A stretch of DNA of 63,964 nt, filler included, from Pseudovirgaria hyperparasitica (taxonomy: Eukaryota): assembly GCA_010093815.1 (NCBI GenBank). It is 17 parts of 16 records of this genome, joined end to end, with 100 filler letters (N's around TTAATTAATTAA, not from the genome) between each part and the next. Parts side by side here need not be neighbours in the genome. Positions count along the whole stretch, not along the records: positions 1 to 5,212 come from ML996638.1; 16 more parts are not named here. One strand, 5' to 3'. Under the pieces are notes generated by a model that searched no databases, was not told the DNA's origin, and saw only the letters and a list, made by a program, of their open reading frames with translations. The first letter of the stretch is position 1. Each line of letters begins with the position of its first letter. Below are positions 1 through 42,198 of the stretch, piece by piece. Position numbers and translations under genes: made by a program.

Positions 1-37
1 GAAGGAGATTAGATGTCGTTCGTATCACTATTGGTCA

Positions 38-232
38 AGGATCCGTGTTAGAGCCACGCTCTAGGCTGGTACAGCTTTGCCATCGCCTATTGGCTATCGA
101 TTCTAGCCTGCGTAAAAGGCACTTTCCGTTCTGGGTGCGACCAGGTCGCACCCAGAACGGAATAGCGTTCTTTGCAGAATTGGCTATAAAGTCCGTGATA
201 GTGGAGACTAATGTCAGAGAGATAACGGTTTT
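38..232. repeat. Dispersed repeat, inverted copy of ~33143-33338
   Basis: GGATCCGTGTTAGAGCCACGCT...GCCATCGCCTATTGGCTATCGATTCTAGCCTG...GGAGACTAATGTCAGAGAGATAACGGTTTTT matches the reverse complement of 33143-33338 with internal indels. Confidence 0.9.
124..162. repeat. Perfect 19-bp inverted repeat with 1-nt loop
   Basis: TTCCGTTCTGGGTGCGACC-A-GGTCGCACCCAGAACGGAA. Confidence 0.95.
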
Positions 233-1842
233 TTACCTTCTAAAATGACAATGACATGGCTCTCCCACCAGCAGGGGTTACATTTCAAAGATGTGTGGTT
301 GGGCCTACCTGATAATTAACGTATACCATTTCGCCAATAATGTAGGACAATTCCACGTGCTATGAGGAGCTCCATGAAGGGCAGTCTCACGATACGGGGG
401 CTTGCATACTTAGGGGGTGTTTGAAACCTCAGGTGGAGGTCGTTTTTTGACCTTTTTTGACCTTTTGACCTCTAGTACCCCCAAGTGTTTGAAATCTCAT
501 TCCACCTCCAGCTTAAAACCCGAGCTGAGGACAAGGATTCGATTTCGCGTATACTTCGGTAAATCTAATAGATTCATGCAACGGATATGCAGCACTACTG
601 TCCTGTCCTCCATAGCAGTTCCCTTCTTTCCAGTGATGGGGGATAATGAGTTATACTCCGAAGCGTCGCTCCAATCGAAAGATTTGGAAAGACGCTTCTT
701 TTCTACGGCCTTGTAGTGGTCCAGTGAAGTTTGAGATAGGAGGTCTGAAATGACTGCGGGATTGCGAAAGCTAGAGAAGAGATATGAAGTTCTTATGAAG
801 TGGATATTTGAAGCTAAGATGTTTCTTAAATCCGGTGGCTGGCTGTCCTGTCATGAATTAAAGGGCAGCGTCGGATGCGCATCATTATTCAACACACAGG
901 CTATGCGTCCGCCTAGGGACACCTCTTATCAGGCCTCGCGGAAGACCTCAAGATCCTCTATTGTGGCTTGGCGGAGATGCATGATGGCGTTTTTGGTCCG
1001 TTAGATTCAAAGTCAAACTTCTCGAAGGGGCTCAATCCAACGATGAATCTCCATGAACGTGAGGTTTGCCTTTAAATGACCGAGCACTGGCTGGTTTCTG
1101 CGTTGGCAAGTGGCGGTCAGAAAAACACCAGGTGACGGTAACGACGTAACGGCTTGCTTTGTCTAGAACCATACTCACCGCTTGCGCTAGAGTTGCTGCC
1201 GTGTACCTCATCGGGACTAGCGCGCTTGCATGGGAGCGTTCGTGAACGAGAGACATGCACGACAACAGTGCATTCAAGGACGAAAACGGCAGCTCACACA
1301 TTGCATCGATCGGTTTGCGCCAATCTTGGGAATATGCTATTCAACTCTGGATCAGCCTGGCATGCCCCCCAAGCACCCCCCGTTCGAGCCATGTAACGAC
1401 ATCTCTGAGGATACCACCAGCTTCTCCTCCCTTGCCACCAATGTTCTGACAAATCTGCTAACACAAAGCCGCAAAGATGATGAAAAATATGCCGAACGAG
1501 AGCGCGAGCGCACCAGGAGTTTCTTCTCTTTAAAAGAACTTTATAAGAATAAAATAAACTTATAGAAGGATAGAGATATATCTAATTAATTATTATATCT
1601 ACTTTTAAAGCTCTTGTAGACTTAGAATAGACGTAAAAGTAGAAAGAGCTCTCGGTATAATGATGGGGGAGAGAACACGCGTGTGCTAGTGCTAGCGACT
1701 CAGGTTCTAGGAAAACGACGGATCCATAGCCGAAATGCCAAGAGTGGCCTTAAAACTTGACCGCCCATAGAATAACGGAGAGATTTTTCCCCGCTTCGAC
1801 TACCGATAAATCACCTCCAGCTTTGTCGCAAATACTTACAAT

Positions 1843-2628
1843 ATGGATAAATGTATTATCGTGACTAGCGATGAAAAGTCTTTGGAAGTCGGTATGTTCT
1901 CATAATGTGCTCTGTAGATGCTAGAACTAAACAGTTTGAATTGTAGCGCCCGACCGTCTTGGTTTTGCCCTCTTATTTCGAGACTTCCTAGATGACCTAG
2001 GCTTGACTAGTGAGCCATTTGTGCTCTCTCATGTACCCAAAATCGACAATTCCTTCGTACGACTCACTGATAGCACTAGGTTGATCATAATACTATGTCT
2101 ATCATCTTGGAATGGGCTCTGGGCCACTACGTGGACGGGATTACCCTTCCTCCAAAACTCAAATTCTGGCAATCACGAGAGGACTTTGAGATTCTCCGAA
2201 TCATACCGACCGCAGACTTTCTCGGGGCTGAAAGCTTACTAAATCAAGCGCTGACTCTCGCCAACCTACTCTTAGTGACGGATTACAAATTTCGAAACAC
2301 CGTCGAGAAAACCGAGTTCTCGACGCAAATGACTAAAAGACTCTTGACCCTAGATGCAGTGCAAACTGCCCAGAGACATTACAAGTACTATTGTTACGCG
2401 CAGATCGATGGTTCTGAAAGAGAAATCTGGAGCGAGATCGTCTCGAGTTTTCCAGAGAGTAGCAGAGCTGTGAAGGATTGGACGATCTTTATTTACGCTA
2501 CTTTCACTACCAAGCTTAGAGTCATCGGTAAAGAGAGCGAAACTGAGGATCTCTCAGCATTAAAGACCTTCATACACGAATGGCGCCCCTTTATCAAGGT
2601 TACATTCGATCGTATCATGACTATATAA
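1843..2628 (+). CDS. Divergent Skp1/BTB-POZ-like protein, ~227 aa, 3 exons (1843-1891, 1947-2032, 2080-2628)
   Basis: Two GT-AG introns join an open frame: MDKCIIVTSDEKSLEVAPDRLGFALLFRDFLDDLGLTSEPFVLSHVDHNTMSIILEWALGH...KFWQSREDFEILRIIPTADFLGAESLLNQAL. This follows the Skp1 pattern (xxSDG..fev, LIKNMLEDLG, PIPLPNV, VIEWCxHH, LAANYLDIKxLL) and continues into a ~110-aa unrelated C-terminus. Confidence 0.7.
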
Positions 2629-2789
2629 GCATCATCTTTCCCGATGGACGAATTCTCGATAGTATCTTGGTTAGTGTCTTCTGTGTCTTCTGTGTCTCTT
2701 GACTAATAATCCGCTCGTCCCTATCTGCCGGCTACTATCTAGTTCATTACTACCGTGAGACTCTCGCTACTGCTTTAGATCTTGACGGC

Positions 2790-2987
2790 ATGCCTGGATC
2801 TTCGATAGTTGCAATAGCCACAGCTGCCATCGCATCAACAAAATCGCTATACAAGATTGTCCAACGCTACAAAGAGCGTGCTAAGACTCTAAAAATACTA
2901 TTAAGCGGGCTGGATGGCCTTCTCACCATTCTCGACACACTCTCTACAATAAACGAGACCAACGTGCAAGATCAAATCGACTTGTGA
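2790..2987 (+). pseudogene. Truncated HeLo-like/fungal N-terminal helical domain fragment
   Basis: SIVAIATAAIASTKSLYKIVQRYKERAKTLKILLSGLDGLLTILDTL resembles the N-termini of fungal HeLo-like/SesA-type NLR and ankyrin proteins. It stops after 65 aa. Confidence 0.5.
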
Positions 2988-3381
2988 CAAGGAGTGAGTG
3001 CTCAGAGGGGGTTGTGTATCAAGGATGCATGTGTGGCTTGCTGCGACCGGTCAGACAGAACCCTTCTTGATCGATCGTTATGCGTTCGGGCTCGGAAGCG
3101 GCACAGGCCTTCAGTGTATGGATCCACATCAATTTGTTGTTGTACAGTGCGCAAACGACTGGTGGGTCAGGCTCCGAGAAGAGTTCTGATTGATCGGGAT
3201 GCAGTCTTCGTGCTGGGTTCCATGATATGACGTATCTACTTGGGCGAGTCCGGAATTTCACTGTTCCTTTCGGCAAGGATCTTGTATGATTGCGGCCCAT
3301 ACTATACCGTGGTCGGCTTGGAACGTTTCTGGTGCTATGTAATTTTATTGACGAGATTTCTACCTCGTTAATAGGTTTATG

Positions 3382-3476
3382 GTCAACGACATCTTTATCA
3401 TCCAACGACATCTTTATCACCCAACGACATCTTTATCATCCAACAACATCTTTATCATCAAACGACATCTTTATCA
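3382..3476 (+). repeat. Minisatellite, 5 x 19 bp (TCCAACGACATCTTTATCA)
   Basis: Five head-to-tail near-identical units with no spacers. Confidence 0.95.
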
Positions 3477-4417
3477 TGTCTGCTACCATTTCCTATGACC
3501 CGGGTCGGTCCACATTTGTACCTGGACTAGGAGAGAAGGGGGCATAGGCTGACTTTCTGCCAAAGTGGTAGAGAGTAAATCTAGCAGCTTATGCGTCTGC
3601 TCGGTATGCCCAGGTAAGAATCTCGGCAACCGGCCTGGGGCGAGGCTCGCAGAACCGCAATGATCAGGAGTGGCGAGCACGACATACTCAGGCTGGCTAC
3701 ACTATGCTCGCTGCGTCGCAGGGTTGGCGACGGTTATGGCGCATGAGGGCCGACAATCCTTGTGTTATAACAAGCGGATGTTCAATCACCTGTAATTTGT
3801 GGGCTCTTGCCAGCCCCTCTTTGCACAACTGATCCGTGGCGAGTAGTCTCTTTTGACGGCACGACGACCGTTGAGGGCTTGGACGTGCGGCTACTCCGTG
3901 TGTAGGCCATGGATAGCTCTTCCCAGATGCTTACTGCCCTTCGTTCGAGTTTAGAGGCTCGTCAGGTCATCACTAGAGCAAGTAAGAGTCGACCTTGCCC
4001 TGGCAGCGGCTATGGGTGCAGTCATCGATCGTGGTATTTGTCCCTAACCCCATCTACTATCACCGGACCACCCCTTGAGCTATATGAAGAGCTGCTGGGC
4101 GAAGTGGTTCACTTAGGGTTGATGGCTTCGGCATAGTTGATTGCTACAATCGATGCTGATTTCTGCTTCGTAACCCAAAGAGATTCAAGATTCTCCAGTC
4201 GAGAATGGCATATCTTCTATTTTGATGCCAGGTTGGGAGGCAGGCCTCGAGCGGGAGGACTTACTTTTGATCCCGTATACGACGATCAATAACTCGAACA
4301 ATGCATGAATGAAGCTACCCCTGCCGCCTGCACCCTGTCAGGGACTCTGCCGTTGCTGGCACTTACTGGGCAATCGGAGTGCTGGTGACGAAGACACTCC
4401 TTCCGGTTCCCTTGTTT

Positions 4418-4462
4418 GTAAAGCCTCTCTTGGCAACAGAGTGTTACCAAGAGCGGCTTTAC
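4418..4462. repeat. 21-bp imperfect inverted repeat; homolog at 52915-52955 in opposite orientation
   Basis: GTAAAGCCTCTCTTGGCAACA-GAG-TGTTACCAAGAGCGGCTTTAC (2 mismatches). Confidence 0.85.
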
Positions 4463-5212
4463 CCAGCTAAAGAGCTCCCACCGCCCCGACCATCTTTTGA
4501 TACTGTTGCGCAGCTGCAATGGCCTGTAAGTGCTACCTTATGGAACTACTAATACAGATTCTTACGACGGATTCAGGCTCTAATTACATGCCAAAGGAGC
4601 TGATCTTCTTGGTTTCGAATTTAGGAGATCTTTTGAGCCATCTTTATTGTGGCTTACTTAAACCAGGTATCTTGCACTCCTCCGATAGGCGTGGGTAGAA
4701 CAATAAGAAGCCACATATGGGGGTGTTGACTTCGCGTAGAAATGTGTTGCCACCCAGTAATTGAAGCTTTATTTTAGAGTATTGTTACAACATTCTCGTG
4801 ATAACGATGCGTTTGACCCGGCCGTATTCGTTGTATCACCTGTGCAGCAAGCCAGCACGAACTCATCGAAAAGCCCATCTGCATGACATGATCGGATGTG
4901 CACCAAAGCTCTATGAATCATGTAGAACGCTAACTTGCCGGTCACCGCTACTAATAAAGATGCCATAGCATCCACTCGCTCGGTCAAAAATGAGATGAGG
5001 ACCATTAGAAGTGGAAGCATTTCGAGATCTATTGTGGACCAGTCTGATATCAACGTGAAGGCCGTCCGTAGTGCCTTCACCATCACGCCTTATGCTTATT
5101 ACACCGTAGTGTTATATTTACTAGAGCTAGCTGCTATCTGAATGGAGATGAGTAGTCTTAATTCCTGAAAGGGGTAGCTCGGGATGTGTATCACAACACG
5201 GACGGCACTTTT

Positions 5213-5312
5213 NNNNNNNNNNNNNNNNNNNNNNNNNNNNNNNNNNNNNNNNNNNNTTAATTAATTAANNNNNNNNNNNNNNNNNNNNNNNNNNNNNNNN
5301 NNNNNNNNNNNN
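5213..5312. other. Artificial contig spacer (N-run, TTAATTAATTAA, N-run; 100 nt). It recurs at 10481, 11759, 13394, 18040, 22474, 26772, 31035, 35258, 39473, 43663, 47774, 51617, 55279, 58923 and 62395.
   Basis: Identical 100-nt spacers with stops in all six frames. Contig lengths from 13494 onward fall monotonically (4546, 4334, 4198, 4163, 4123, 4115, 4090, 4011, 3743, 3562, 3544, 3372), as in a concatenated unplaced-contig pseudomolecule. Confidence 0.97.
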
Positions 5313-7002
5313 GACCCGCTTCCAAGTCGTCAGCACGCCTGTAGACGTATCGAGCTCCCACACCCGCATCCGGCGGTGAAATCGATGTTTACCGACCGAG
5401 CTATATCCGCCGAACCCGCTACCACCTGCATGACACAGCCAAGGGCGAGTCAGGGTCTTTGAACGGTTTTGTTGTCGTTTGAATGGCAGCAGAGCGCAAA
5501 AGTCATTCACGTGGTCGTGCCCACAGCCCAAGGCTGATATTCCACTCTGGACCAAGGCATTATAGAAATGAGAATTACGTCTGGGGGCTTCCGTTGGCTC
5601 TCTTCGATTTCCACCGCGTATGTCTAAATTGCTGCATCCAAACTCAGGAAGAGGTATGTGTTGGTAGACTATAGACAGATGAAAGTTTCCATTACTACTG
5701 CCTTTTCCGCGCCGGCTTCCGTGCTCGTTCGTAGTGTCGAGAAACCAGTCGATTTGACTTTGCTTTATTGGCTCATAGTTGGAACCATATATTGACTTAG
5801 GCACCTGCCCGTGTGAATCCAGAAAATACAAGGTCGCCAATGGAATCTGTACTGGGGAATGGGCTAGAATCTCGATATAGTAGTTGCCTATACCGTCCAC
5901 GTGCTCCGGTCCCGGCTCGCAGAGGCTGAAGGGTAAGTTTTGGAGTATTGACATTTGGGCGGTGCCTACAGCCCAGTTAGCAAGGATACAACCAGGCCCA
6001 AATTTTGAATATATGGTCAACGCTCGTATTGAGTAGCTATAAGAGGGATGGGATAGAGGAATGCTTACGTGATAGGGCGTTTCTACCCTCGCTATCATGG
6101 TTCCCAAAGACGGCTGCGAACGGGATTGAACGTGCAATCATAGGGGCAACCACCTTGAAGAGAGCGGATTGGGTGTCTGGGATATCGTGATGTAGCTGAT
6201 CTCCAGTAAGCACCACAAGGTCTGGTCCCTCAATATCCAGGACCTCTTCAATAAATTTGACGGTTAATGGGTCAGCCTTATTCTCTGGAAGATGGTTTCC
6301 GTGGGCATCTATAGCATCTTTACAGATGCCAGTACCTGTTACCATATGCGTATCAGAAATTTGGATAATCTTGAATTTGCCGTCCTCCCTAACTCGCAAA
6401 CCTGCCTTAGCATCTGGTGGAGGCTCAGCCCTGCCATGAAGAATGGTTAAACTTGCAACATGTGCATCTCGAGGAGTCTGTATTTGTAGGGGCGATCGTA
6501 TCAGCTTCCACTGTGGGCGCGGATCAATAGCGTCTGGGCCAAAGAGTACGTCCACATGTGTCACAGCTTGGCCGATATTACCAGAAAACTTGGTTCTCAG
6601 TATCCATATTCCACCAGGTCGACTTTCCCACGTATTAGCTGAGCCTGGGTTGGGCGGCTGCTTGCCAACTCTAATATCCACCACCATCATATCCTCAGCT
6701 CCAAGCTCTTGTTCATCCATCAAGGCCACGTACAGCCACGCACTTTGCCGGGAAGTATATAGATAGAGATCCTTCTCTACACGGTGCCATTGGCGCGGAT
6801 CCAGTCCACTGGGTAAATGTTGACCGGATGAAGACGAAAAGCTTATTGTAAGATCTGTGACAACTGGACGAACAACGATCGCTGCGGTGGAAGAAGCGGG
6901 TAACGTTGCCACTTCGGAGGAAATGACGAGGTTGAAGGGGTCGAAAACATGAAGTAGCATAACAGCTAGTAGGACGGATGCTGATGCGATCGCGAATGCC
7001 AT
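5313..7002 (-). CDS. Calcineurin-like metallophosphoesterase, Dcr2-like; intron 5966-6068; 3' end cut by the gap
   Basis: Motifs FKIIQISDTH, DLVVLTGDQ, VFGNHD, YFLDSHG, YQHIPLPEF, GCGHDHVNDFC, GGSGFGGY, RMRVWELDT. N-terminal hydrophobic segment. GTAAGC...GCTAAC...TAG intron joins the two ORFs. Confidence 0.9.
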
Positions 7003-7517
7003 TTTTTTTAGATGTCTTCCAGAATTTATGAAACGGTATGGGGTGATGCGACGGGTTAACGACTTTACGTAGAGCGTAGATAGAGTACTAACCCGAATTA
7101 GTCATAGGCGCTCTGTGTCTTGGCAATCGTGGCCTACAGTTTCGACCGTGACTCCCAATTGCCTTCCCCATGCCACACTGTCAAAGACCACGTGACAGTC
7201 CTTACCATCATGTGATCATGTTATACCAGATGAAGTTAGTAAGTAGGCGTGGCCCATGTGAGTAAGTCCGCGCTTTTTTTCCTCTCAACTAATTATATTC
7301 CACAATAACACAACGCTATGGCTCATCGCATTTTCATCAAATGCACCTCGTCCTTCGATCTCATCGATCTCACCCATGGTGATGTATATTTACAAGCGTA
7401 GTCCATATATAGATATTTCAGCTGTGACACCATCCCTGCGATTCCTTTCCAACACGATCTGCTTTTCCTCCCGTCTCTCTGATCCGGTGTTTAAATCAGA
7501 CAGATGAGTTTACGCTA

Positions 7518-8317
7518 TCATTGAGCGCAGAAATAGTCTATTCTTGTTGACAGAAAGGTTTCTTGGCCAGGATCGAACAGCTCAGCCGGTAAAACATCAG
7601 TATGGGCGGCACCAGAGCCAGCATAAGCTACCGTACTCTGCCCGGATATCTGTGATACCCAGTTCACATCGTCGTCATCAAGATCGGTCCGGTGATGCTG
7701 CGATAGATGTTCCTCTTTCTCGATGTCCCGCACTCGGTAGCTACGCTTTTTCTTCGTGTATTTACGAGTCAGCTCGGTAGTGCCCAAAAGACCAGTAAAT
7801 TTGTTTGAATTATACGCCGAGAATGGGAAAGAAGCCACTTAAAGCACTTAGGTAATCCGTAAAGAGGCTATACAAGGTGAACGTTAAGCGATACGATCCC
7901 GAACGGCGGACTGATAGGTCCGGGAAGACAAAAAATGCACTTTTACCAAGGCTCGGGCACTGCATATGAGAAACAGAAATTCCAATCATAAGTTCATCGT
8001 TCGAACTTTGCGCGGGTTTTTCGTAGGGACTGACGCTTTCTATTGTCGCGACGAGAAAAAAAGTTCCGAACACTTGGACTTGAGTTTCTTCTTGGGCGTA
8101 GTTATCGAAAATGTGGAGCTCTATAATAGGAGGAGGGTCGATTGGCCGGCGCTGTTCAAAGGCTGCTTATTGAATCAGTACCTGACGGATATAGACTTGC
8201 TGACCTACCTTTCTCCCCGTAACCACAAGCTCGAGATGTCTTTGGTTGTTGTAAGACGCTCAACATATATGATGTCGCTCCATCGACGCTGGTTACAGTG
8301 CTTATCGGTTCGTTCAT
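7518..8317 (-). pseudogene. Velvet-domain (VeA-like) regulator paralog, disrupted near 7838-7865; intron 8163-8208
   Basis: Spliced: YMLSVLQQPKTSRACGYGEKAFEQRRPIDPPPIIELHIFD...FFLVATIE...FFVFPDLSVRRSGSYRLTFTLY. After a frameshift and two TAA codons it continues VASFPFSAYNSNKFTGLLGTTELTR...YRVR. These are all hallmark velvet motifs. Confidence 0.85.
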
Positions 8318-19002: not shown

Positions 19003-21346
19003 CTAGTACATTTTCCAAGACGCATATCATGCGCCGTGGAATAGCATCAAAATGGCAGTTTGCCTCCCAGATCAGTCCGTGACCTGGTGTGGTAGAGTTT
19101 TAGATGAATCGGAGGGTTTCTCATAATCCTGGAAGGTGAAAAGTACACAACCTATAATTATATCGTCATCTCCGTCAGATAACGGACGGTAATGTCACCT
19201 GACTCCTTGGTTATGCTCACAACGGCTTCAGCCTATAGATATAATAAGAACAATGGCCTGCAGAGAAATGTACAAGGCTTAAAGCTACTGAATCCATCCT
19301 CGGGATCAGTTCGCGGAATCGCTTTGAACTTTGAGATGTGTGTTGTGCTCTCGGAGCAAAGGGTTGCATGGGTCCCATAGCAATCAGTCACCCTGTTCAA
19401 GTGGAGGCTTCAGGCCAGCCACTGGTCGTACATAGTGCCTCAATACTGATGGAGGTTAGTGCTGGCAGCGCGTATTGATGCTGCAATAGTAAGGGCCGTT
19501 CTGCATGTGACAAGTGATAGTAAGCTGCAACTCCTTATTTGAAATTGGAAGCACAGATCACCATGCACCCGCACGAGTCCAACTACCAACCTCTTACGCC
19601 CACGTCGTGCAACTTAAGGAGCTCTTTATGATATAGGCGCCGCCCCTCTCTCCATGTTCAAAGCTTTGTGGTCACAGATCACCGCATGTTCGCAACACAA
19701 CCACACATACATCTTCCGTACAATTCCAACTTCTGGGCAATGACAGCAGCGTACCAGTCTCATAGAATCCATTCGCCAAACCGACGAAAATGGTTCTACG
19801 GTCGTAAATGATACCGACCCAGTCCATGCTCCTAACAAAGACCGTGATTGGGAGGCAACGTCATTTCTGATTTCTCCCGATGATGAGCTTCACGACGGTG
19901 ACAAAGAGGAGAACTACCAAAGTCGTTTTGAAAGGCATGTTGAGAGCCACGAAACTCGTCGGCGGCGGAAGATGCTCCGGCAACGCGATGACTTCTATAA
20001 CCTCGATCCAGACTTCAATGTAATACCCGATTCGGGGCACAGAGATCGAGCTCGACTGTCCTCCGACCTAACTGTTGCCGCTGTCACTCCAATTCTCAGC
20101 AACTTTTCGTTCAAATCAGTCAACACATCATTCGGTGCAACCGACGGTTCATCATTCTTCAACCCTTCATCATTCATTTCAGAAACGGCGATGGGCCCGG
20201 AAAGGGACCAACAAAGAAACGAACAGATTATCCGGCCAGGCACTCAAGAGTATGAAACTTCAGCGGCCGACCTCGCGAGCATTGACGAAACTATCACGCT
20301 GGTTACGACAGAAATCTCCCACAGGCCGACCCGTATTGTAGTCCGTGCAAAGCCGTCCCTAGTCCCAAATGAACCGAACAATTTGGTCCATACTGCGAGC
20401 TCCAGTCTTGAAATCGCCATAAGAGACAGCAATCCGACATTACTTTTCATCAGAAATTGAGGAAATCATGAACGTCCTTGTCTTCGGTGTCTTTCATCCC
20501 GGATACGACCATTCTACTGCTCACCGAGTGGCCAATCTATCCGTCGTGTTCGTTGATTACGGCAAGTGGTATTCAGTGGTCAAATGGCAGATTACGACCT
20601 GGAAACGGAAGTCAACGACGCTATTGCTAGACTGCCTTACGTTGTCGATAATAGAGGAAACAATATCCGACTATTTCCAATCCTCACGACATGATCAGAA
20701 TGAATGCATGGTACAAAACATGATTATTAGCATGATTTGTGAATTGCGCAGCGATAGTGAACAAATCCGCATCAGGCGCCATTCTCTCTCTTATGGTCTA
20801 TGTGACGTTATGTACTCCTGCTCCGTTCTTAACACATTCCTTTACCTCGACAATCTGCAAACGTCCAAGTTGGTCTTGATGAAAACGCCATCCAGTTATG
20901 ACCGCGGTGTCACCTTTATGTGGAGTCCATTCTCGAGGTTGTACAGTCGACTGTGTTGCTTCAATTCCAGCCAACGTGTTTTCAACAATGATCCCATTTG
21001 GCATCCCATCGCTAGGATTAGGAACCAGACTGATAGTCTCCCTCAAAGCCAACGAGATAAGTAGATCGCGAAGCGCATCAAGGAAGCTCGTGTCGAAGTG
21101 GGGTACACGTGTGTCACCTAAGCTGTATTCGAACGGCTCAAAAGTGAGCATGCTATTCAAATACAGCGAGTGCGGAACCAGCAAAGTTGCGTCCACAGAG
21201 TGTACATCGCAAACAGAGCAGACATCAATGTCTCCTGCGTTAAGACGATGTAACATGATTTGGTTGTCTTGTAGATCGAAATGTCGATGGAGAAGTCCAA
21301 CGCCATAGTGCTGTTGAACGTCATGCTCTATGAAAAGCTCTCCGAT
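18140..21346 (+). repeat. 3.2-kb near-identical duplicate of 23565-26771
   Basis: Offset 5425 with identical ORF sets. By eye, only one difference was noted (GTG vs GTC, ~18229 / ~23654). Confidence 0.97.
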
Positions 21347-24427: not shown

Positions 24428-27400
24428 CTAGTACATTTTCCAAGACGCATATCATGCGCCGTGGAATAGCATCAAAATGGCAGTTTGCCTCCCAGATCAG
24501 TCCGTGACCTGGTGTGGTAGAGTTTTAGATGAATCGGAGGGTTTCTCATAATCCTGGAAGGTGAAAAGTACACAACCTATAATTATATCGTCATCTCCGT
24601 CAGATAACGGACGGTAATGTCACCTGACTCCTTGGTTATGCTCACAACGGCTTCAGCCTATAGATATAATAAGAACAATGGCCTGCAGAGAAATGTACAA
24701 GGCTTAAAGCTACTGAATCCATCCTCGGGATCAGTTCGCGGAATCGCTTTGAACTTTGAGATGTGTGTTGTGCTCTCGGAGCAAAGGGTTGCATGGGTCC
24801 CATAGCAATCAGTCACCCTGTTCAAGTGGAGGCTTCAGGCCAGCCACTGGTCGTACATAGTGCCTCAATACTGATGGAGGTTAGTGCTGGCAGCGCGTAT
24901 TGATGCTGCAATAGTAAGGGCCGTTCTGCATGTGACAAGTGATAGTAAGCTGCAACTCCTTATTTGAAATTGGAAGCACAGATCACCATGCACCCGCACG
25001 AGTCCAACTACCAACCTCTTACGCCCACGTCGTGCAACTTAAGGAGCTCTTTATGATATAGGCGCCGCCCCTCTCTCCATGTTCAAAGCTTTGTGGTCAC
25101 AGATCACCGCATGTTCGCAACACAACCACACATACATCTTCCGTACAATTCCAACTTCTGGGCAATGACAGCAGCGTACCAGTCTCATAGAATCCATTCG
25201 CCAAACCGACGAAAATGGTTCTACGGTCGTAAATGATACCGACCCAGTCCATGCTCCTAACAAAGACCGTGATTGGGAGGCAACGTCATTTCTGATTTCT
25301 CCCGATGATGAGCTTCACGACGGTGACAAAGAGGAGAACTACCAAAGTCGTTTTGAAAGGCATGTTGAGAGCCACGAAACTCGTCGGCGGCGGAAGATGC
25401 TCCGGCAACGCGATGACTTCTATAACCTCGATCCAGACTTCAATGTAATACCCGATTCGGGGCACAGAGATCGAGCTCGACTGTCCTCCGACCTAACTGT
25501 TGCCGCTGTCACTCCAATTCTCAGCAACTTTTCGTTCAAATCAGTCAACACATCATTCGGTGCAACCGACGGTTCATCATTCTTCAACCCTTCATCATTC
25601 ATTTCAGAAACGGCGATGGGCCCGGAAAGGGACCAACAAAGAAACGAACAGATTATCCGGCCAGGCACTCAAGAGTATGAAACTTCAGCGGCCGACCTCG
25701 CGAGCATTGACGAAACTATCACGCTGGTTACGACAGAAATCTCCCACAGGCCGACCCGTATTGTAGTCCGTGCAAAGCCGTCCCTAGTCCCAAATGAACC
25801 GAACAATTTGGTCCATACTGCGAGCTCCAGTCTTGAAATCGCCATAAGAGACAGCAATCCGACATTACTTTTCATCAGAAATTGAGGAAATCATGAACGT
25901 CCTTGTCTTCGGTGTCTTTCATCCCGGATACGACCATTCTACTGCTCACCGAGTGGCCAATCTATCCGTCGTGTTCGTTGATTACGGCAAGTGGTATTCA
26001 GTGGTCAAATGGCAGATTACGACCTGGAAACGGAAGTCAACGACGCTATTGCTAGACTGCCTTACGTTGTCGATAATAGAGGAAACAATATCCGACTATT
26101 TCCAATCCTCACGACATGATCAGAATGAATGCATGGTACAAAACATGATTATTAGCATGATTTGTGAATTGCGCAGCGATAGTGAACAAATCCGCATCAG
26201 GCGCCATTCTCTCTCTTATGGTCTATGTGACGTTATGTACTCCTGCTCCGTTCTTAACACATTCCTTTACCTCGACAATCTGCAAACGTCCAAGTTGGTC
26301 TTGATGAAAACGCCATCCAGTTATGACCGCGGTGTCACCTTTATGTGGAGTCCATTCTCGAGGTTGTACAGTCGACTGTGTTGCTTCAATTCCAGCCAAC
26401 GTGTTTTCAACAATGATCCCATTTGGCATCCCATCGCTAGGATTAGGAACCAGACTGATAGTCTCCCTCAAAGCCAACGAGATAAGTAGATCGCGAAGCG
26501 CATCAAGGAAGCTCGTGTCGAAGTGGGGTACACGTGTGTCACCTAAGCTGTATTCGAACGGCTCAAAAGTGAGCATGCTATTCAAATACAGCGAGTGCGG
26601 AACCAGCAAAGTTGCGTCCACAGAGTGTACATCGCAAACAGAGCAGACATCAATGTCTCCTGCGTTAAGACGATGTAACATGATTTGGTTGTCTTGTAGA
26701 TCGAAATGTCGATGGAGAAGTCCAACGCCATAGTGCTGTTGAACGTCATGCTCTATGAAAAGCTCTCCGATNNNNNNNNNNNNNNNNNNNNNNNNNNNNN
26801 NNNNNNNNNNNNNNNTTAATTAATTAANNNNNNNNNNNNNNNNNNNNNNNNNNNNNNNNNNNNNNNNNNNNGAACTATCAGGCAATGCAGCCTGTGTCTG
26901 ACTTACTCTCTTTTTCCGCTGATGCCTGAATGGATTCTTACCAGTGTGGCCAGGATTCTTGATGGCTGGACAATTCAGGTCGCAATGCTCGACTGGTACG
27001 TTCTGATCGTTGAGCATCGAGTGTATAGTGATTCTTTCCATGATAGACTCTGTAGCGTTAGGTCATTTAATTGAAAGACAGCAGAGATTGTGCGAGATCA
27101 AGCTGTTATACTGACATGTTGTTCGACAATGTTGGTTGGTACGCTAAGGACCGTATCTGCTGTGCCTCCTACCGTATGCCAAGGCGGATCACATAGTAGC
27201 AAAGGGGAGATCTACTACGCTTGCCGCAAGTCTCCTCCCTCCTAACTATCATCTTTCTATCTCATCAAAGATCGATCGTAGTAGAGGCGCAATAGCGTTA
27301 CCAAAATCTGATTCTTTCTACTCTTGCAGGCTGTTGGGTGTTATGTCGAGCCGCGTTGTGAAAGGAGTTTGTTATTGTCTTGAGAGCGGCAGACGTCCAG

Positions 27401-28574
27401 GTTCCAGGTTCCTGCACTGTGCAAAGATTGTGGCTGCGGCGCAGTAACAGACCGACGGCTTATGATCATTAGATCCAGAAGAAACATCTACGGCACTCGT
27501 CACATGGGTACTCTCTTAAGCCTATAAGTGGCCGAGTACGGCGAAGTCTGTTGGTAAGTAAGTCATAATATCACTTGAGGTAGCGACCGTCCATTCAGAA
27601 TATGTTCCCGTGCGAGTGATGAGCATGTGAGCGATGGATCCATACGACCATCCGGATTCATGGATGGATCCGTCTGTAACTTTTTCAGCGCGACTCTTGG
27701 TACGTGGTTCATCCTTCACTTGCTAAACCACGTAGGTTCTTTCTAAAGTTGCGGACGTAGTCTAATACTAGTAGAGGATAGACGATGAAGTCAAGAGGAT
27801 ATACATTTCCGAGTACAGTTAGACCTGGCCACTCCATTACACGCGATAGACTTTATCGCTATCCCGATTCGTTCGTCAATCCCAAGAGACTGACTTAAGC
27901 TATTCTCAGGCGCAACGAGTCTATCGAAGTCGGCTAGTATACCAGAAGCGCTCTCGCTCCCATTGCAACTCTTCTTTGAGCTCGAGATTCTTAGACAACC
28001 AGACTTAACAGGTTGAGGGTGCGAGATTGGCGGAAAGTCGACTCCCTTTTTCGAACGGATTAGCCCTATACTGGATAGGCAGGGATACACTTCTCGGCAT
28101 ACCGACAGTGAAAGCCCCTTAGGTATAGTAGAAAAGCAGCTGTAAATAGGAGAGGCATGGATTGAAAGTGACAAGATCCGGTCCGAGGTCCGAACCGGGC
28201 CGTCATTACAGCTGATCTCTTTACATTTCATTTCTAGTTAGTACTGTCCATATAGCATTGAACAGACTTTTGTGCGTGTGCGAGATAGACAGATCGTCCG
28301 ATGTCTGAGATTCCGTTACCGGTCGTGCGAAGGAAGTCCTCAGCCGTATGCTTGATCCAAGTATACGCCTGGGTCCCCGAAACTGGGTCAAGTTTGCTAA
28401 ACTGTATTGCACGCGGACGCCTTTGAAATCGTAATCTTGTTTTGGTAGCACATCGTTAGCATAGACCACGAAGGATGTTCGACGATAACTGCGCAAGGAT
28501 GATTCTAAGTAATGTATAGTATAAAACCTGTTTGGTTAAGCTAGAGGGCTGCTTGGGAGATACTTCGTACAACG

Positions 28575-29484
28575 ATGGATGACCAGTCTTGCCATCCGGG
28601 TATGAGTATCTACAGCATCACGCCTCCAGACAGCGAAGTTGCGCTCTGTGCTGGTGTCCCTGACAACCTTAATGCCACTTGGGAGAATTGGACCTTTCCT
28701 TCGAGCTCTCCACCGGCGATCTTATATCGAAACAACCTAGGGTCTGGACACATGACAGCTGATTCCTCCGACTTGTTCGCTGACGTCAATGAATACTCCT
28801 TTGAGCCGGACTTGAATCTTCCGAGGGCACAATGTCAATCTCCGTGGCCAATCGAGTTCCAACAAGAAAACTGGGAGTCGCTGCAGGAGACGACCGCAAC
28901 ATGGAACACCACGTCAGAAGATATCTCTTGGAGAGAATGTGAGCCTCGGGTCGTCCAGACAGATCCATATCATGGACTCCCTGAGCAGGTAGCATTGCTC
29001 GAGCTTCGTATGACACAGGAAGAGTATTGGACAGATCAGCTCCAGCTCTGTTCTACTCGGCTGGATGCTCGAGCATTTGACTTGGAAAAGAAGTCAGGTT
29101 CCTATCAAGGCAGGATTGACTGCCTGGAGGAGAAAGTAATTGCGCTAGAGGGAAGCAGAGAGTTGCTACAGCAAAGCAACTCGCAACTCGAAAAGCAGAT
29201 GGATTCTGCATCAAAGCAGATCGACCGGCTCACGGAGCAGAACACGGCGCTCCGGTGGTAAGTTGACTGTGCTCTACCTGTCCCCGCATGAGGTCTCATG
29301 GGCTGATGGTACACGAAGGGATCTCGATAGCGTAAAAACGTATCTCGAGCAGTTCCAGGACTGGTCCTTTGAACTCAAAAACTCTGTTGACTCGATCGCT
29401 AGCAGTTGCAAGCAGCAAGAGGACGACGGTTCGGAACGGAGACTAATAGCTCTGCGACCAAGAAGCGAGACAGCATCGGTTTAA
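28575..29484 (+). CDS. Hypothetical coiled-coil protein (2 exons; intron ~29258-29318)
   Basis: 228-aa ORF with heptads (LEEKVIALEGSRELLQQSNSQLEKQ). A GTAAGT...GCTGAT...AG intron continues in frame as WDLDSVKTYLEQFQDWSFEL. Confidence 0.65.
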
Positions 29485-32545: not shown

Positions 32546-33729
32546 TAGTAGGCTCTCAAGATGAGCGCAACGAAGGTTGTGCCAGCCGACGAGATCGCCG
32601 TGATAGCAAGTCCAGCCGACACCGCGAGCGCGAGAGAAGTCCGCGTGGCGAGAAAGAGGGAAGCAACCGACGCGAATGTGACGATGGACGAGCGAGGCGG
32701 AGAGCGCGAACGTGAACGTGAAGTGTTGAGGCCTGTAATTTATTAGACTCGGGATTTAATAATATGGGGAAGCTACTTCGCAGGATGCGCCAGATGAGCC
32801 CGTAAGTCAAAGGGACCACGCGAGAATCGTTAAATTTTGAAAAGGATCGTTATGGGGGTGCTTCTGACGGTCGTTCAGAGTATACCAACTCAAAGCTACG
32901 GCGCTAATAGCAGAGGTGATACAGAACAGGCAAGATATCTTCATAGTGTTGGGCTCACTGGTCCGTGAAAAACAAAAGTAGAAGAGCGCGGAGAGAAGAG
33001 CAACCATATGCAGCTAGAGGTTACTCCTAACCACGCTGGGTTCAACAGAATTATTACCATTACAGTATAATGAAAGAGATCTTAATGAAGGAGCGGTTAT
33101 AGAAGGTAAACTATCTATAGATGGCTGTTACGATCTTGGTCAAAAACCGTTATCTCTCTGACATTAGTCTCCACTGTCACGGACTTTATAGCCAACTCGG
33201 ATGCGTATATGGTGTAGACAAAACACCCAAATCCATTCTGCAAAGAACGGAAAGCGCCTTTTAAGCAGGCTAGAATCGATAGCCAATAGGCGATGGCAAA
33301 GCTGTACCAGCCTATAGCGTGGCTCTAACACGGATCCTGTAAACCCCTAGCACTCGGCAATATCTACGCGTCCAGCATCTTATAGGTATCGTTATGATAG
33401 AGCATCACTTCGCGATATTATACTGTCGGGACTTTAGTTCACCCTTGGTCAAGAGCCGAGCAGCGTCCTGATCGACGGGCAGGTCGTCTTGCTAGGCAGA
33501 GGTAGACGATGTCTCCAATTCACGCCCACGATAATCCGACCAGGACCGCATCACAACTAGGAAGCCTAATCAAAGTCCCATCGAGTATGAGTATAACCAG
33601 GTTCATGTAAAGAGCTAGTTGGAGCGTTGAGTAATAGAGTACGTAAGATTAATTTTAACGGCCAGGGAATGGTCTCCTACATTTTAAAATTTCTAGGCTT
33701 AGGGAAATCTTCATGAGTTCAAAAACCAA

Positions 33730-35040
33730 TCAAGATGGTCCGATCGTGTATCGGTTCTGGCAGGAGAACTTCTGAAACGCGTCGTCTAGCGCTTTATCAT
33801 AATCTGTTCGCAATAGAAGAGTGTTAATGCTGGTAATAAAATCTGCCCTATCTGCAAGGGTGTGCTTCAGAATATCTGATGACGCGAGTATCGTCATCGT
33901 CGTCACGTCCGCCCACTCGGCCACGATGGGCAGTAGCTGTAGGCCTGACAACTGGCTGCTATCGCATCGTTCAAGGAAGTGTCGTAGCACGGCGTGGTTG
34001 TTAAACGTTATTGCCGTAGTAAATGGTGAGTGTCCGTTATTCGCTACATAGCTCAAGTCGGCGCCATGGTTGAGTAGCATTTCCGCAAACTCGACAGTCT
34101 GCATGCTAGCAACAGTCTGCAACGCGGTACGACCCTCTGGATTGCGATGATTGATTTCGGCGCCAAATTTGATAAGCAGCTCTACCATCCCTATCAGACC
34201 GCCAAAGGTGGCCGAAATGAGTGGGCTGCTGCGAAACAAGTCTTTTGGCACCTTAGGATTAGGACTTGCCCCAGCCTCGAGGAGAATGCGGAGTACCTCA
34301 TTATTATGACTGTCCACCGCATGTAGAATTGTAGTGCGCCCATCGATATCCATCGTGTCCACCGGGGAACCGCGATCTATCAATAGCCTCATATGAGCGA
34401 GCTGTGACAGGGCTGTGGCCCAGTCAAGCGCAGTTCGGCCCATAGCATCTTTGCTTCGTATAGCATCTGGATTGCTATCGAGCTCATCCTTAAGCAGCTT
34501 AGATGACCGCCCTAAGATAATTTTATGGACCAAGGGAAATTGTTGTTCTTCGAACCAATCCGCATGTTCGTACTTGTCCGGAGGGTTCATTGTAATGCAA
34601 CGAAGCTCGTTTAGCTCCCTAATGGTACATTTATGGCGATATGCATAATCCCATACATGATGATATGACCTGAAAATCGGTTACTAATAGTAGTCTTATT
34701 AAGACAGCGAACTTTGGTGCCTACTCATCATCAACGAACGCCCCATGATTAAGGAGGAACTTCACGGTCTCAAAATTGTGCATTCCGCCGTAGAGTGCCC
34801 ACTAATATTGTGCTTAGTAACATTTCGGCAACGTGGTAATTAATAGCCGGAAGGTGATGAGACCTACTCTTACTAAACTAAATTCCCGAGTATTGCTCAC
34901 GGCTGTCGGAGAAGCGAGTCCTTGGCTAAAAAGTAACTTCAAGCCGTCAATGTTTCCTTCTACAGCGAACCGAACTGACTGTGCAGAATCTGGAACCTTT
35001 ATTTCATTTCGTAATTGAAGTGGCGGCCTCATATTGCTAG
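33730..35040 (-). CDS. Ankyrin-repeat protein, multi-exon, 5' end missing
   Basis: VRFAVEGNIDGLKLLFSQGLASP / WALYGGMHNFETVKFLL / DAMGRTALDWA, DIDGRTTILHA, NPEGRTALQTVA, NNGHSPFTTAI. GT-AG introns near 34805-34870 and 34670-34725. Confidence 0.85.
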
Positions 35041-39472: not shown

Positions 39473-39572
39473 NNNNNNNNNNNNNNNNNNNNNNNNNNNN
39501 NNNNNNNNNNNNNNNNTTAATTAATTAANNNNNNNNNNNNNNNNNNNNNNNNNNNNNNNNNNNNNNNNNNNN

Positions 39573-42198
39573 CCACTTGTCCGTTTGCTTCATATGCGCC
39601 TGCGAGCGCGTGCTGCGATGCCCGTCGTGAAGGGTGCTCTTCTCCAAGATGCTCTTTCCGCCATTCATCAACAACCAAGAGCCAGTACATGCTCTCGCCC
39701 ATGCGTCCATCAGCGTAGAGGCAGAGCCCTATCTTAGAGCATAACGTATACCGCTCCTCCAGGTCCTGTGTCGTGCTATTACGTGCAAGCCGTGTTGCAT
39801 GCGGAAGATACTCTTGCCACAAGCCGCGGTTGGTGTAGTCGTCCAATGGAAATACTTGAGCTATATGCTCCGTCGCTTGCTTATTCACTGCGGTAGCCTG
39901 TCCCTCCTTCTCAATCCATATTTTGCTTGCTAAATGGACAAGCCGGTGCATGTCGTACGTCGTGCTAGACCCGCGGCGAGCGATAAAAGCATACGACTGC
40001 AGAACGCCGACTGCGAACAGCGTGTCCTCGTCAGATTGCGTACGTGGCAGCAAGGACAAGGGGATCGCTCGAGGCTCAATTTGCGATAGAAATTCAAGGA
40101 GCTGTGCCGCTGAATCATTGGTATCCTGGATTTGGGCGAACGATACTAGCCACGTTGTAGCTACTGCATTTGCCGCGTCAGAGTACCGCGTGTCATCTCC
40201 AAACTCGCGACTCATCAGACTGATCAGACTCTTCTCGGTCCCTCGCAGCGACGTTAGATAGTCAGCGATCGTAGTTTGTGTGACGTCGAGATACGCCGCT
40301 GCTTGTGTAATAGCTAGCGGATGGAATGACAGCTCCTCCAGTAACATTATCACAAGCCTATCGTGCCTCGCTGGACTATCTTCCGGCAGTGAGACATCGA
40401 AGAGTTGCCGCGCTTCCGTGTGATCCATCTCCTGGACGTCTACCGTGTTTCGACCTGCAAGTGAACGTGCAGCTTCACGGTGGCGCGTTGTAAAGACTAT
40501 CAGACCGTCTTCATGGGCTGGAAAGAAGCCTGTCAATCCTCCGTAGCTCTTTAGCTCTCTATTCAGCATATCTACATCATCCGCATTATCGAGAATGAGT
40601 AGCCACTTTCCGGCGCGCGACGAATGGATGTACTGATAAAAAGACTCCATCGGGTCCTCGTCCTTTACTACAGCTACCCCTGCCGCCTTAAGTACTGCGA
40701 TATAACTCTGCTTAAAGCTTTCCGCGCTTAGTGCTGCTATCCAGAAGACGGAAAACTTAGGTTGATTATCTCTGACCCAGTATGCGAGCTGCAGCGCGAC
40801 CTGCGTTTTGCCCACACCTCCAAGTCCGACTAGCGCCGTCCTCCTACAGCTCTTCTGATAGAATAACTTCTGTTGAAGCATGGCTAGCTGTGACGCGCGC
40901 CCAACGAAGTTCTGATTGCGCTCGAAATAAATCTCATAGCAGGGCGCATTAGGAGATTGGTTGACACGAGCTGTGGCAAGGTGAAAAGAGGTATTATGAT
41001 GGCTTGAGGCGAGTCTACATACCTATGTCGACTCGATCTTCCATCTCCCATCGTTGACGAACCATCTCGCCACCCTTTAGCAGCATCAGACGTACGTGTC
41101 CTGATATCTTCTTGTACCCTTGCTTTGCTGAATGCTCAAATCTTACCATGTCAATATGATTTGCAGGAATCGCGATCTGCTCGGCATCCGCAGCGCCTGG
41201 TACTGCCGCCGACGCTTTCGGCACAATCTATCCCTCTTAGCTGCTGTCGACATGCTATGTGCTAATATGCCCTTACCATCATAGAGTGCCCGAGCTTGGT
41301 CGGCGTCTTGTCCGCCTCGTACGCGAACTTTGTCACATAGTTGCCGCTGATCGGCCCATATTGTCCCAAGCTGCTGGAGCCACTCTGAGTCTCGCTCCAA
41401 GTGTTGCAGAAGCCGGTTGTCCGCAGGCACATACACTGAGGCGACGCTCACGAGCAGCTTCCCCAGTGTGACGCCGTTTCCGCCTTGATGTGGCGTGCCC
41501 ATGAATAGGATGCCATATGTCGATACGGCAATCGATCGGTGATCGTGGAGCGCGCCGTGACGGGCGGCGTCAGAGTGAATCAGCGCCTGGAAAGGTCAGC
41601 CTTGAAGTACAGCTACTCTCAGAGAATCCTACGCTCTTGACGATGATCCCGCCCAAGCTATGTGCAATGAAGATGATCGGACGTCGGGTGGTCTGCTTCC
41701 GCTTAGCTAGGCCCGTCTTCTGAAGGTGCCTTGTGTACCTCCGTCAGCTCTCGCTCCAGGCACAGGTCGGACACGAGCGTGAGGGCATAGTCGTACAGCG
41801 ACTGGCAGCTCACGCCCGACGCGCCGTGTGTGTTCGCGTTGTAGCCCCATGAAGAATGCGCGCGTTTGGAATATCGTTTGGGAGCAGGTCTCGAAGCCAG
41901 AGCTTGCCATTCTTCGCTGTCCACGCCCGCGCGCGGTGGCCGTTGATGCCGTGGATCGCGACGATGCTGAGGTGGGTTTAGTAACGATCAAGCGACGTGA
42001 CGGGAGACGTTGTATACTCGGCAATTGGATCCGTGCCTTCTGCGAGGACGTGCAGGCCGTAGGGCTCCACCGAGGACGGATCGGCTGATAGAGCCGGACC
42101 CGTCGACTGCACTATGGGGTTAGCGTGGAGATGGAGACGAACGTCAAACCGACCTTCTCGGGCTTCTTTGTTCGCAGAGTAGCTAGAAACGATCGCAT
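39573..42198 (-). CDS. Fungal NLR: SesB-like alpha/beta-hydrolase + NB-ARC + TPR; two apparent 1-nt frameshifts in the hydrolase domain; 3' end cut by the gap
   Basis: IVAIHGING, WLRDLLP, WGYNA, RPIIFIAHSLGGIIVK, ILFMGTPHQG, ANHIDMVRF; NFVGR, Walker A GLGGVGKTQ, WLLILDNADD, IVFTTR, PLAITQAAAY, MHRLVH; TPR start LGEEHPSRRASQHALA. Confidence 0.9.

Follow-up and report, generated by a model that had tools for sequence, protein, structure and literature searches.

Few eukaryotic proteins are as strongly conserved as Skp1, and fungal genomes normally encode it once. Its divergent paralogs have been well documented in plants, nematodes, and trypanosomes. As described by Stogios et al. (2005, PMC1257465), Skp1 consists of a core BTB fold and two C-terminal helices that bind the F-box, and a distinctive PxPN motif in its strand 3 forms part of the contact with Cul1. 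Some members of the plant and nematode families, as portrayed in two accounts (PMC3511428, PMC1257465), have altered C-termini and doubtful function; ASK6, for example, is C-terminally truncated and possibly a pseudogene. In trypanosomes, a divergent Skp1 paralog named SkpZ belongs to the TbTpr86/TbUsp7/SkpZ complex and, going by the preprint on that complex, has never been found with cullins (bioRxiv 10.1101/2020.11.10.376269).

The gene described here comes from Pseudovirgaria hyperparasitica, whose genome is part of a 101-Dothideomycetes set and which is described there as a mycoparasite (PMC7082219). The window, meaning the whole stretch of DNA analyzed, is 63,964 bases long. Near its start, exons 1843-1891, 1947-2032, and 2080-2628 join into a 684-nt coding sequence of 227 codons plus stop, with the ATG at 1843, the TAA stop at 2626-2628, and, 34 nt before the ATG, another in-frame stop (1807-1809). 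The spliced 227-aa translation is letter-for-letter identical to a public protein of this species, here called P0002 (KAF2752413.1 / XP_033594871.1, EJ05DRAFT_542636), which is entered as “hypothetical protein EJ05DRAFT_542636” and carries the UniProt automatic name “BTB domain-containing protein”; its record places it on a 5,212-bp contig, as long as the first piece of the window. The preliminary description of this DNA had proposed an intact frame with two introns, and this identity bears it out, as do the splice joints given below. It had also called the gene easily missed, but public annotation already has exactly the same gene model. Four sequencing runs cover the stretch: X1 and X2 are probably DNA, and X3 and X4 come from another study, their kind unrecorded. 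The features of the gene are these:

1489-1842, + strand: transcribed upstream region, probably a 5' UTR or an overlap with another transcript; an X3 contig spans 1489-1890 and then joins 1946/1947.
1843-1891, + strand: exon 1, codons 1-16 and the first base of codon 17, matching the start of P0002.
1892-1946, + strand: intron 1, 55 nt, GTATGT..TAG, skipped in an X3 contig (depth 1073, shorter side 53 letters).
1947-2032, + strand: exon 2, the rest of codon 17 to codon 45; V42-L43-S44-H45, at 2021-2032, stands at the apparent position of the Skp1 PxPN motif.
2033-2079, + strand: intron 2, 47 nt, GTACCC..TAG, phase 0, skipped in contigs of X3 (depth 2400) and X4 (depth 495).
2080-2628, + strand: exon 3, codons 46-227 and the TAA stop, a 182-aa open frame.

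When the run contigs are aligned to positions 1-5212, an X3 contig joins 1890/1891 to 1946/1947 with GT..AG ends, and contigs of both X3 and X4 join 2032 to 2080, again with GT..AG ends. Neither joint occurs in any X1 or X2 contig over the same positions; those contigs read through the introns. The depth of X3 and X4 is zero at intron-1 positions 1895, 1907, and 1917. Since X3 and X4 skip both introns and X1 and X2 do not, X3 and X4 behave like transcriptome assemblies, and both junctions, 1891/1947 and 2032/2080, are confirmed exactly as they had been proposed for checking. X3 and X4 are treated as RNA-like solely from these intron-skipping contigs, no run being on record as RNA. Over 2110-2668 their contigs differ from the window by one letter, the synonymous change 2145 C>T, and they carry the window letters at 8 of the 8 listed sites within 2331-2444 at which a sister copy of the gene differs. 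The locus is thus a genuine, spliced, transcribed, and already annotated gene of Pseudovirgaria hyperparasitica, its transcription being read from X3 and X4, runs of unrecorded kind. In its 3' region, contigs of X3 and X4 also cleanly skip 48 nt (2669-2716), a skip absent from the DNA runs. The ends of this skip are the non-canonical GG..TC, or GT..CG if moved by one, and a donor-like site, GTTAGT, and a branch-like site, CTAAT, lie inside it.

The protein falls into two parts of very different character:

1843-2289, + strand: Skp1-type BTB/POZ region, residues 1 to ~115, split by the two introns, as assigned from Pfam, a PDB sequence alignment, and Atlas structure matches.
2290-2625, + strand: orphan C-terminal region, residues ~116-227, predicted to be helical by low-confidence models, with neither a family nor a fold match.

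For the first part, Pfam returns Skp1_POZ (PF03931) at E 0.0093 over residues 5-60 (profile positions 4-59 of 62). It is the sole family at E ≤ 10, its 16.6 bits lie below the Pfam gathering score of 21.9, and the BTB model PF00651 is not among the matches of P0002 at that threshold. A phmmer search of PDB sequences lists two chains, Skp1a (6v88_A, E 0.055) and a lipocalin (E 0.075). The former is a truncated Dictyostelium Skp1a, to whose positions 6-113 residues 7-108 of P0002 align, including the helix-5/6 stretch; this match is weaker in a PDB profile search with a two-sequence alignment, A1 (E 0.22), than with the single sequence. Because the Skp1_POZ match is below the cut-off and the E value of Skp1a is close to that of a lipocalin, the Skp1 kinship of P0002 is marginal by sequence alone.

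Structure speaks more clearly. The ESM Atlas contains a model of the exact P0002 sequence with a pTM of 0.58 and a pLDDT of 0.62, which is of moderate confidence and whose coordinates could not be inspected. When the Atlas is searched by structure with residues 1-120, 5 of the 5 listed rows are clusters dominated by Skp1 families, with 97-118 residues aligned and a TM by query of 0.79-0.82 in four of them and 0.63 in the fifth; among the Atlas feature matches, ranks 2-3 are BTB clusters with scores of 0.91-0.92. AlphaFold2 gives poor models, with a pLDDT of 33.3 from the single sequence and 39.0 with alignment A1. These place two strands before helices at residues 18-33, 48-62, and ~95-117, which follows the Skp1 order. 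Since the model is poor, a Foldseek search of the PDB with the 39.0 model was used for the identity of the top rows only. None of its 443 matches reaches E ≤ 0.001, and all 44 listed rows (from ranks 1-50) come from Skp1-containing entries, at E 5.6e-3 to 0.18, with chains of 103-163 residues, identities of 13-22%, alignments of 113-164 columns, and a TM of 0.23. We conclude that the first ~115 residues are a Skp1-derived BTB/POZ domain, as had been proposed from the sequence motifs, with a Skp1-type fold that is weak in sequence and clearer in the predicted structures.

The two features that define canonical Skp1 function do not appear recognizable in the sequence of P0002. In the HMMER alignment to 6v88_A, a single weak pairwise alignment, the P-L-P-N of Skp1a faces V42-L43-S44-H45. 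The C-terminal domain of Skp1 (PF01466), whose helices grip the F-box, was found at E ≤ 10 neither in the whole protein nor in three C-terminal pieces of it, a search in which the HMMER filters drop most matches above about 0.1. A Pfam check for both Skp1 families, as suggested earlier, therefore came out divided, with Skp1_POZ as a sub-threshold match and Skp1 itself absent. One or two helices past residue 115 may still be Skp1-like, at which the Foldseek alignments of 113-164 columns, made with the poor model, hint. Residues ~112-133 presumably resemble the Skp1 helix-7 motif, a likeness that we take as a lead. The F-box-gripping helices are replaced, or overgrown past recognition, by ~110 residues that have no relatives.

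For this tail, no Pfam family is found in residues 76-227 at E ≤ 10, and BACK, 3-box, F-box, and other partner-binding families are absent. In the Atlas structure search with residues 112-227, the best TM is 0.44, none reaches 0.5, and all feature scores fall below 0.9. The claim that the tail is unlike anything known holds up, there being no relative by sequence or by fold in Pfam, the PDB, the Atlas, or 1.84 billion protein representatives. Matches of the tail to the lipocalin Fel d 7 (E 0.034-0.075; the best PDB sequence match), to a longin, and to an amylase were judged to be chance.

The setting of the gene has to be read from a short piece of DNA. The window is made of 17 pieces, the shortest 1,178 and the longest 5,212 bases, whose G+C lies between 0.29 and 0.53; 16 identical linkers (44 N, TTAATTAATTAA, 44 N) join them, the first at 5213-5312 and the rest at 15 further sites. 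The Skp1-like gene sits on the first piece, 1-5212, and the DNA past 5212 is physically unlinked to it. Since these pieces are small contigs with no link to one another, nothing can be inferred about a neighborhood wider than 5.2 kb. The preliminary description had placed the gene on accessory or mobile DNA amid pseudogenes. Only 5,212 bases are linked to the gene, these show no mark of accessory or mobile DNA, and a 95%-identical copy lies on a 284,374-bp scaffold, so the accessory setting is not supported. What stands of the pseudogenes is one remnant that adjoins the gene; the others sit on other contigs. The proposed setting was largely an artifact of joining 17 unlinked small contigs. The adjoining remnant is the following:

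2790-2987, + strand: remnant of a PigL_N gene (N-terminal domain of fungal STAND proteins), PF17111 at E 4.4e-11, profile positions 8-62 of 209.

This open reading frame starts 162 nt downstream of the stop of the Skp1-like gene and ends in a TGA after 65 codons. When the TGA is read as X, the match reaches only profile position 81 of 209, and the frame, which is transcribed, has the look of a STAND/NLR-type fungal gene reduced to a remnant. Over 2717-4525, X3 and X4 contigs run on without joints, and the longest + strand frame there is 86 aa.

Several other observations concern the same contig. At 4526-4576 (+ strand), a GT..AG joint of 51 nt occurs in contigs of both X3 and X4, with no recognizable protein family there. 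At 3384-3478, a 19-nt unit (CAACGACATCTTTATCATC-like) is present in about five tandem repeats. The word depth of the DNA runs is about 136,000 over 1219-1392, compared with about 1,000-8,000 elsewhere on the contig, and loose ends gather at 1392 (13 in X1 and 11 in X2). Some very high-copy sequence seems to share this short stretch; Rfam finds nothing at 1219-1392, nor do Rfam and tRNA scans find anything on the contig or across the whole window. Bases 38-237 are 77% identical to 33138-33338, which lie on a contig that bears an ankyrin-repeat frame.

On the other contigs, 6 of the 19 long open reading frames tested match known families, namely metallophosphoesterase, ankyrin, and STAND NTPase and, weakly, zinc-finger, ferric-reductase, and DUF7310. 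An ankyrin-repeat frame (33730-34680) and a STAND NTPase frame of the NB-ARC/AAA_16-like kind (39517-41022) are both fragments of NLR-type genes. Frames of equal length (three of 238 aa and two of 213 aa) recur on three contigs, at 19744-21064, 25169-26489, and 28545-29261, a sign that some element may be repeated among the small contigs. A scan of two 238-aa copies and one 213-aa copy gave a sole match, the weak DUF7310 on one 238-aa copy.

Relatives of the gene are confined to its own species. A phmmer search of the 1.84 billion representatives gives two matches at E ≤ 0.001 and none outside the species. One is the sister copy, and the other, an 801-aa tandem-repeat protein (P0003) matched in 8 short stretches, was rejected as a spurious repeat artifact. 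Candidates chosen by word sharing (45, 290, and 71, the third set being for residues 1-125 and at E ≤ 10) returned only the protein's own cluster each time. The sister copy, P0001, is the sole relative among 5.8 billion clustered proteins. It is 177 aa long, 95% identical to P0002, and encoded on the 284,374-bp scaffold of the same species. The thought that the gene might be a core single-copy ortholog shared across ascomycetes finds no support in these databases, where no ortholog turned up anywhere. Within the 63,964-base window there is no other copy of the gene.

A second form also shows in the sequencing runs. X1 and X2 contain variant letters at about half depth along the whole contig, from 603 to 4758. 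Within the coding sequence they encode M129I, T130A, Y151H, Q153R, S157P, and S167W (matching exactly 6 of the 9 P0001 replacements), as well as V7L and L14F in exon 1, and they alter codons 44, 67, 135, and 165 synonymously. One X4 loose end, at 1946, has exon 1 in its 1884T form, so a second form is spliced at the same acceptor. The annotated 177-aa P0001 starts at the equivalent of Met51; since the second form has an exon 1 (V7L, L14F) and a spliced loose end, this public model probably lacks the first two exons and is N-terminally truncated. The copies are about 98% alike in DNA, and there are at least two of them.

Such variants bring up the reading that the 5.2-kb contig and the locus on the 284-kb scaffold are one locus rather than two, the contig being either a second haplotype left uncollapsed or a duplicate made in assembly. 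It bears on the context only and, although somewhat doubtful, deserves to be kept in view. In its favor, the half-depth letters run along the whole contig and reproduce six P0001 replacements exactly, and the contig itself is short and has no assigned place. Against it, an ascomycete culture is as a rule haploid, and public annotation treats the copies as separate loci. Furthermore, an X2 contig mixes letters of both forms, a hint at more than two forms or at chimeric contigs.

P0001 and P0002 differ by 9 replacements, all in residues 121-197. In the core, for which the comparison is limited to residues 51-120, the part that the annotated P0001 covers, there are 0 replacements in 70 residues, compared with 9 in 107 over residues 121-227 (Fisher p = 0.012). 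With Nei-Gojobori sites, the 11 non-synonymous changes and the 4 or more synonymous ones yield an omega of about 0.8 for the gene as a whole and of about 1.1 for its tail; both values are upper bounds because the synonymous count comes from the variants listed, with 45 further variant rows unlisted. At least 15 of 684 nt (2.2%) differ in the coding sequence; for the contig as a whole, the figure is about 85 substitution rows in 5,212 nt (1.6%). The core looks constrained, and the tail looks either unconstrained or diversifying. An origin of the copy differences by RIP is not favored, transitions making up 49 of the 75 listed X1 changes and C>T and G>A together only 27. The intactness of the gene, which had been singled out earlier, is not remarkable given copies only about 2% apart and a coding sequence whose divergence equals or exceeds the average of the contig.

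These same figures are what one would look for in an expressed but functionless duplicate, that is, an old Skp1 copy that has lost its role, has gained a read-through or de novo tail, and is drifting toward a pseudogene. An omega of this size, a coding sequence more diverged than its contig, a lack of homologs in the searches above, a truncated PigL_N gene next door, and a downstream region (2717-4525) transcribed without a long frame all agree with it. On the other hand, the window copy has kept its frame and its two splice sites intact, and the second copy is spliced at the same acceptor. The recognizable fold, at about 20% identity to Skp1, argues for long-term constraint on the core, and not one replacement falls in core residues 51-120. 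The tail by itself shows no sign of constraint, a pattern that agrees equally well with neutral drift and with a variable binding surface. Drift of a functionless duplicate is, on the whole, unlikely without being far-fetched.

The least durable of the alternatives, a one-piece cullin adaptor or SCF decoy whose core would dock on Cul1 and whose tail would recruit substrates or block F-box proteins, could draw on the Skp1-type fold (Atlas, Foldseek), on the still aligned helix-5/6 stretch, which is the best conserved part of Skp1, on the transcription and splicing of the gene, and on a layout of BTB core and helical region that resembles the BTB-BACK cullin-3 adaptors as outlined by Stogios et al. 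(PMC1257465), but it is improbable, given that the PxPN of the Cul1 contact aligns to VLSH, that the tail contains no BACK, F-box, or substrate-binding family at E ≤ 10 and changes at about the neutral rate between copies, and that no conservation is found outside the species.

The preferred reading, on which confidence and doubt are evenly balanced, is that P0002 is a species-restricted Skp1 derivative whose most likely role is that of a small scaffold with a BTB fold, apart from the canonical SCF. The conserved Skp1-type core would supply a generic protein-contact surface, and the fast-changing, predicted-helical tail would supply a new, lineage-specific surface for partners. With PxPN gone and the F-box helices unrecognizable, the protein most likely would no longer bridge Cul1 and F-box proteins and, by the same token, has most likely left the canonical SCF. 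Such a role would parallel that of the trypanosome SkpZ. A bolder reading would make P0002 a new single-chain module, with the core still plugging into a cullin or another partner of Skp1 and the tail serving as a positively selected recognition surface that redirects or jams ubiquitin ligases, conceivably against the host of this rust-parasitising fungus. Replacements in the tail do outnumber synonymous changes between the copies, yet this reading is very improbable. If true, this would be the first case in fungi of a Skp1-derived adaptor or decoy that carries a de novo specificity domain.

What the gene offers is a small natural experiment in the re-use of a hub protein, in which the fold is kept, both signature contact features have apparently been shed, and an unrelated half has been gained. 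Were the tail shown to work as a binding surface under positive selection, the gene would illustrate compactly how a domain is born on an old scaffold. So far limited to one species, and listed in the databases already as an uncharacterized protein, the gene is a modest, species-restricted curiosity. Our literature searches found no publication on it, nor on any fungal Skp1 derivative with an orphan tail.

Compared with canonical Skp1 (fungal SconC/Skp1; PF03931 and PF01466), the first ~115 residues of P0002 appear to have the same order of strands and helices. The protein begins directly at strand 1, its helix-5/6 stretch can be aligned, and its best N-terminal matches in sequence and in structure are all Skp1. 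Unlike canonical Skp1, it is only about 15-22% identical and below the Pfam cut-off, has VLSH at the position of PxPN, contains no detected PF01466, and carries ~110 unrelated extra residues where Skp1 has two short helices. Skp1 is highly conserved, whereas P0002 is not.

Elongin C and the BTB-only proteins, which belong to the same Pfam clan (CL0033), are likewise small proteins built on the core BTB fold, and an Elongin-C cluster is found at rank 22 (score 0.89) among the Atlas feature matches. In contrast to P0002, Elongin C lacks a long C-terminal region; among the 44 listed Foldseek rows, not one bears the title of an Elongin C complex, and the listed Atlas structure rows are all Skp1. 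P0002 differs from the BTB-BACK cullin-3 adaptors in that no BACK or 3-box domain follows its core (Pfam; Atlas TM < 0.5).

The plant and nematode Skp1-like families, such as Arabidopsis ASK, offer a closer parallel in history, since there too, in the accounts cited above (PMC3511428, PMC1257465), duplication of Skp1 was followed by rapid divergence; their genes, unlike that of P0002, are still recognizable as members of the Skp1 family by sequence. SkpZ, as its preprint presents it, is conserved across kinetoplastids and has partners shown by experiment (bioRxiv 10.1101/2020.11.10.376269), whereas P0002, known here from sequence and models, has its addition at the C-terminus and a gene from one species only. 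What SkpZ and P0002 have in common is that each is a strongly divergent paralog of Skp1, confined to its lineage and extended by an added region, the former as characterized in that preprint (bioRxiv 10.1101/2020.11.10.376269).
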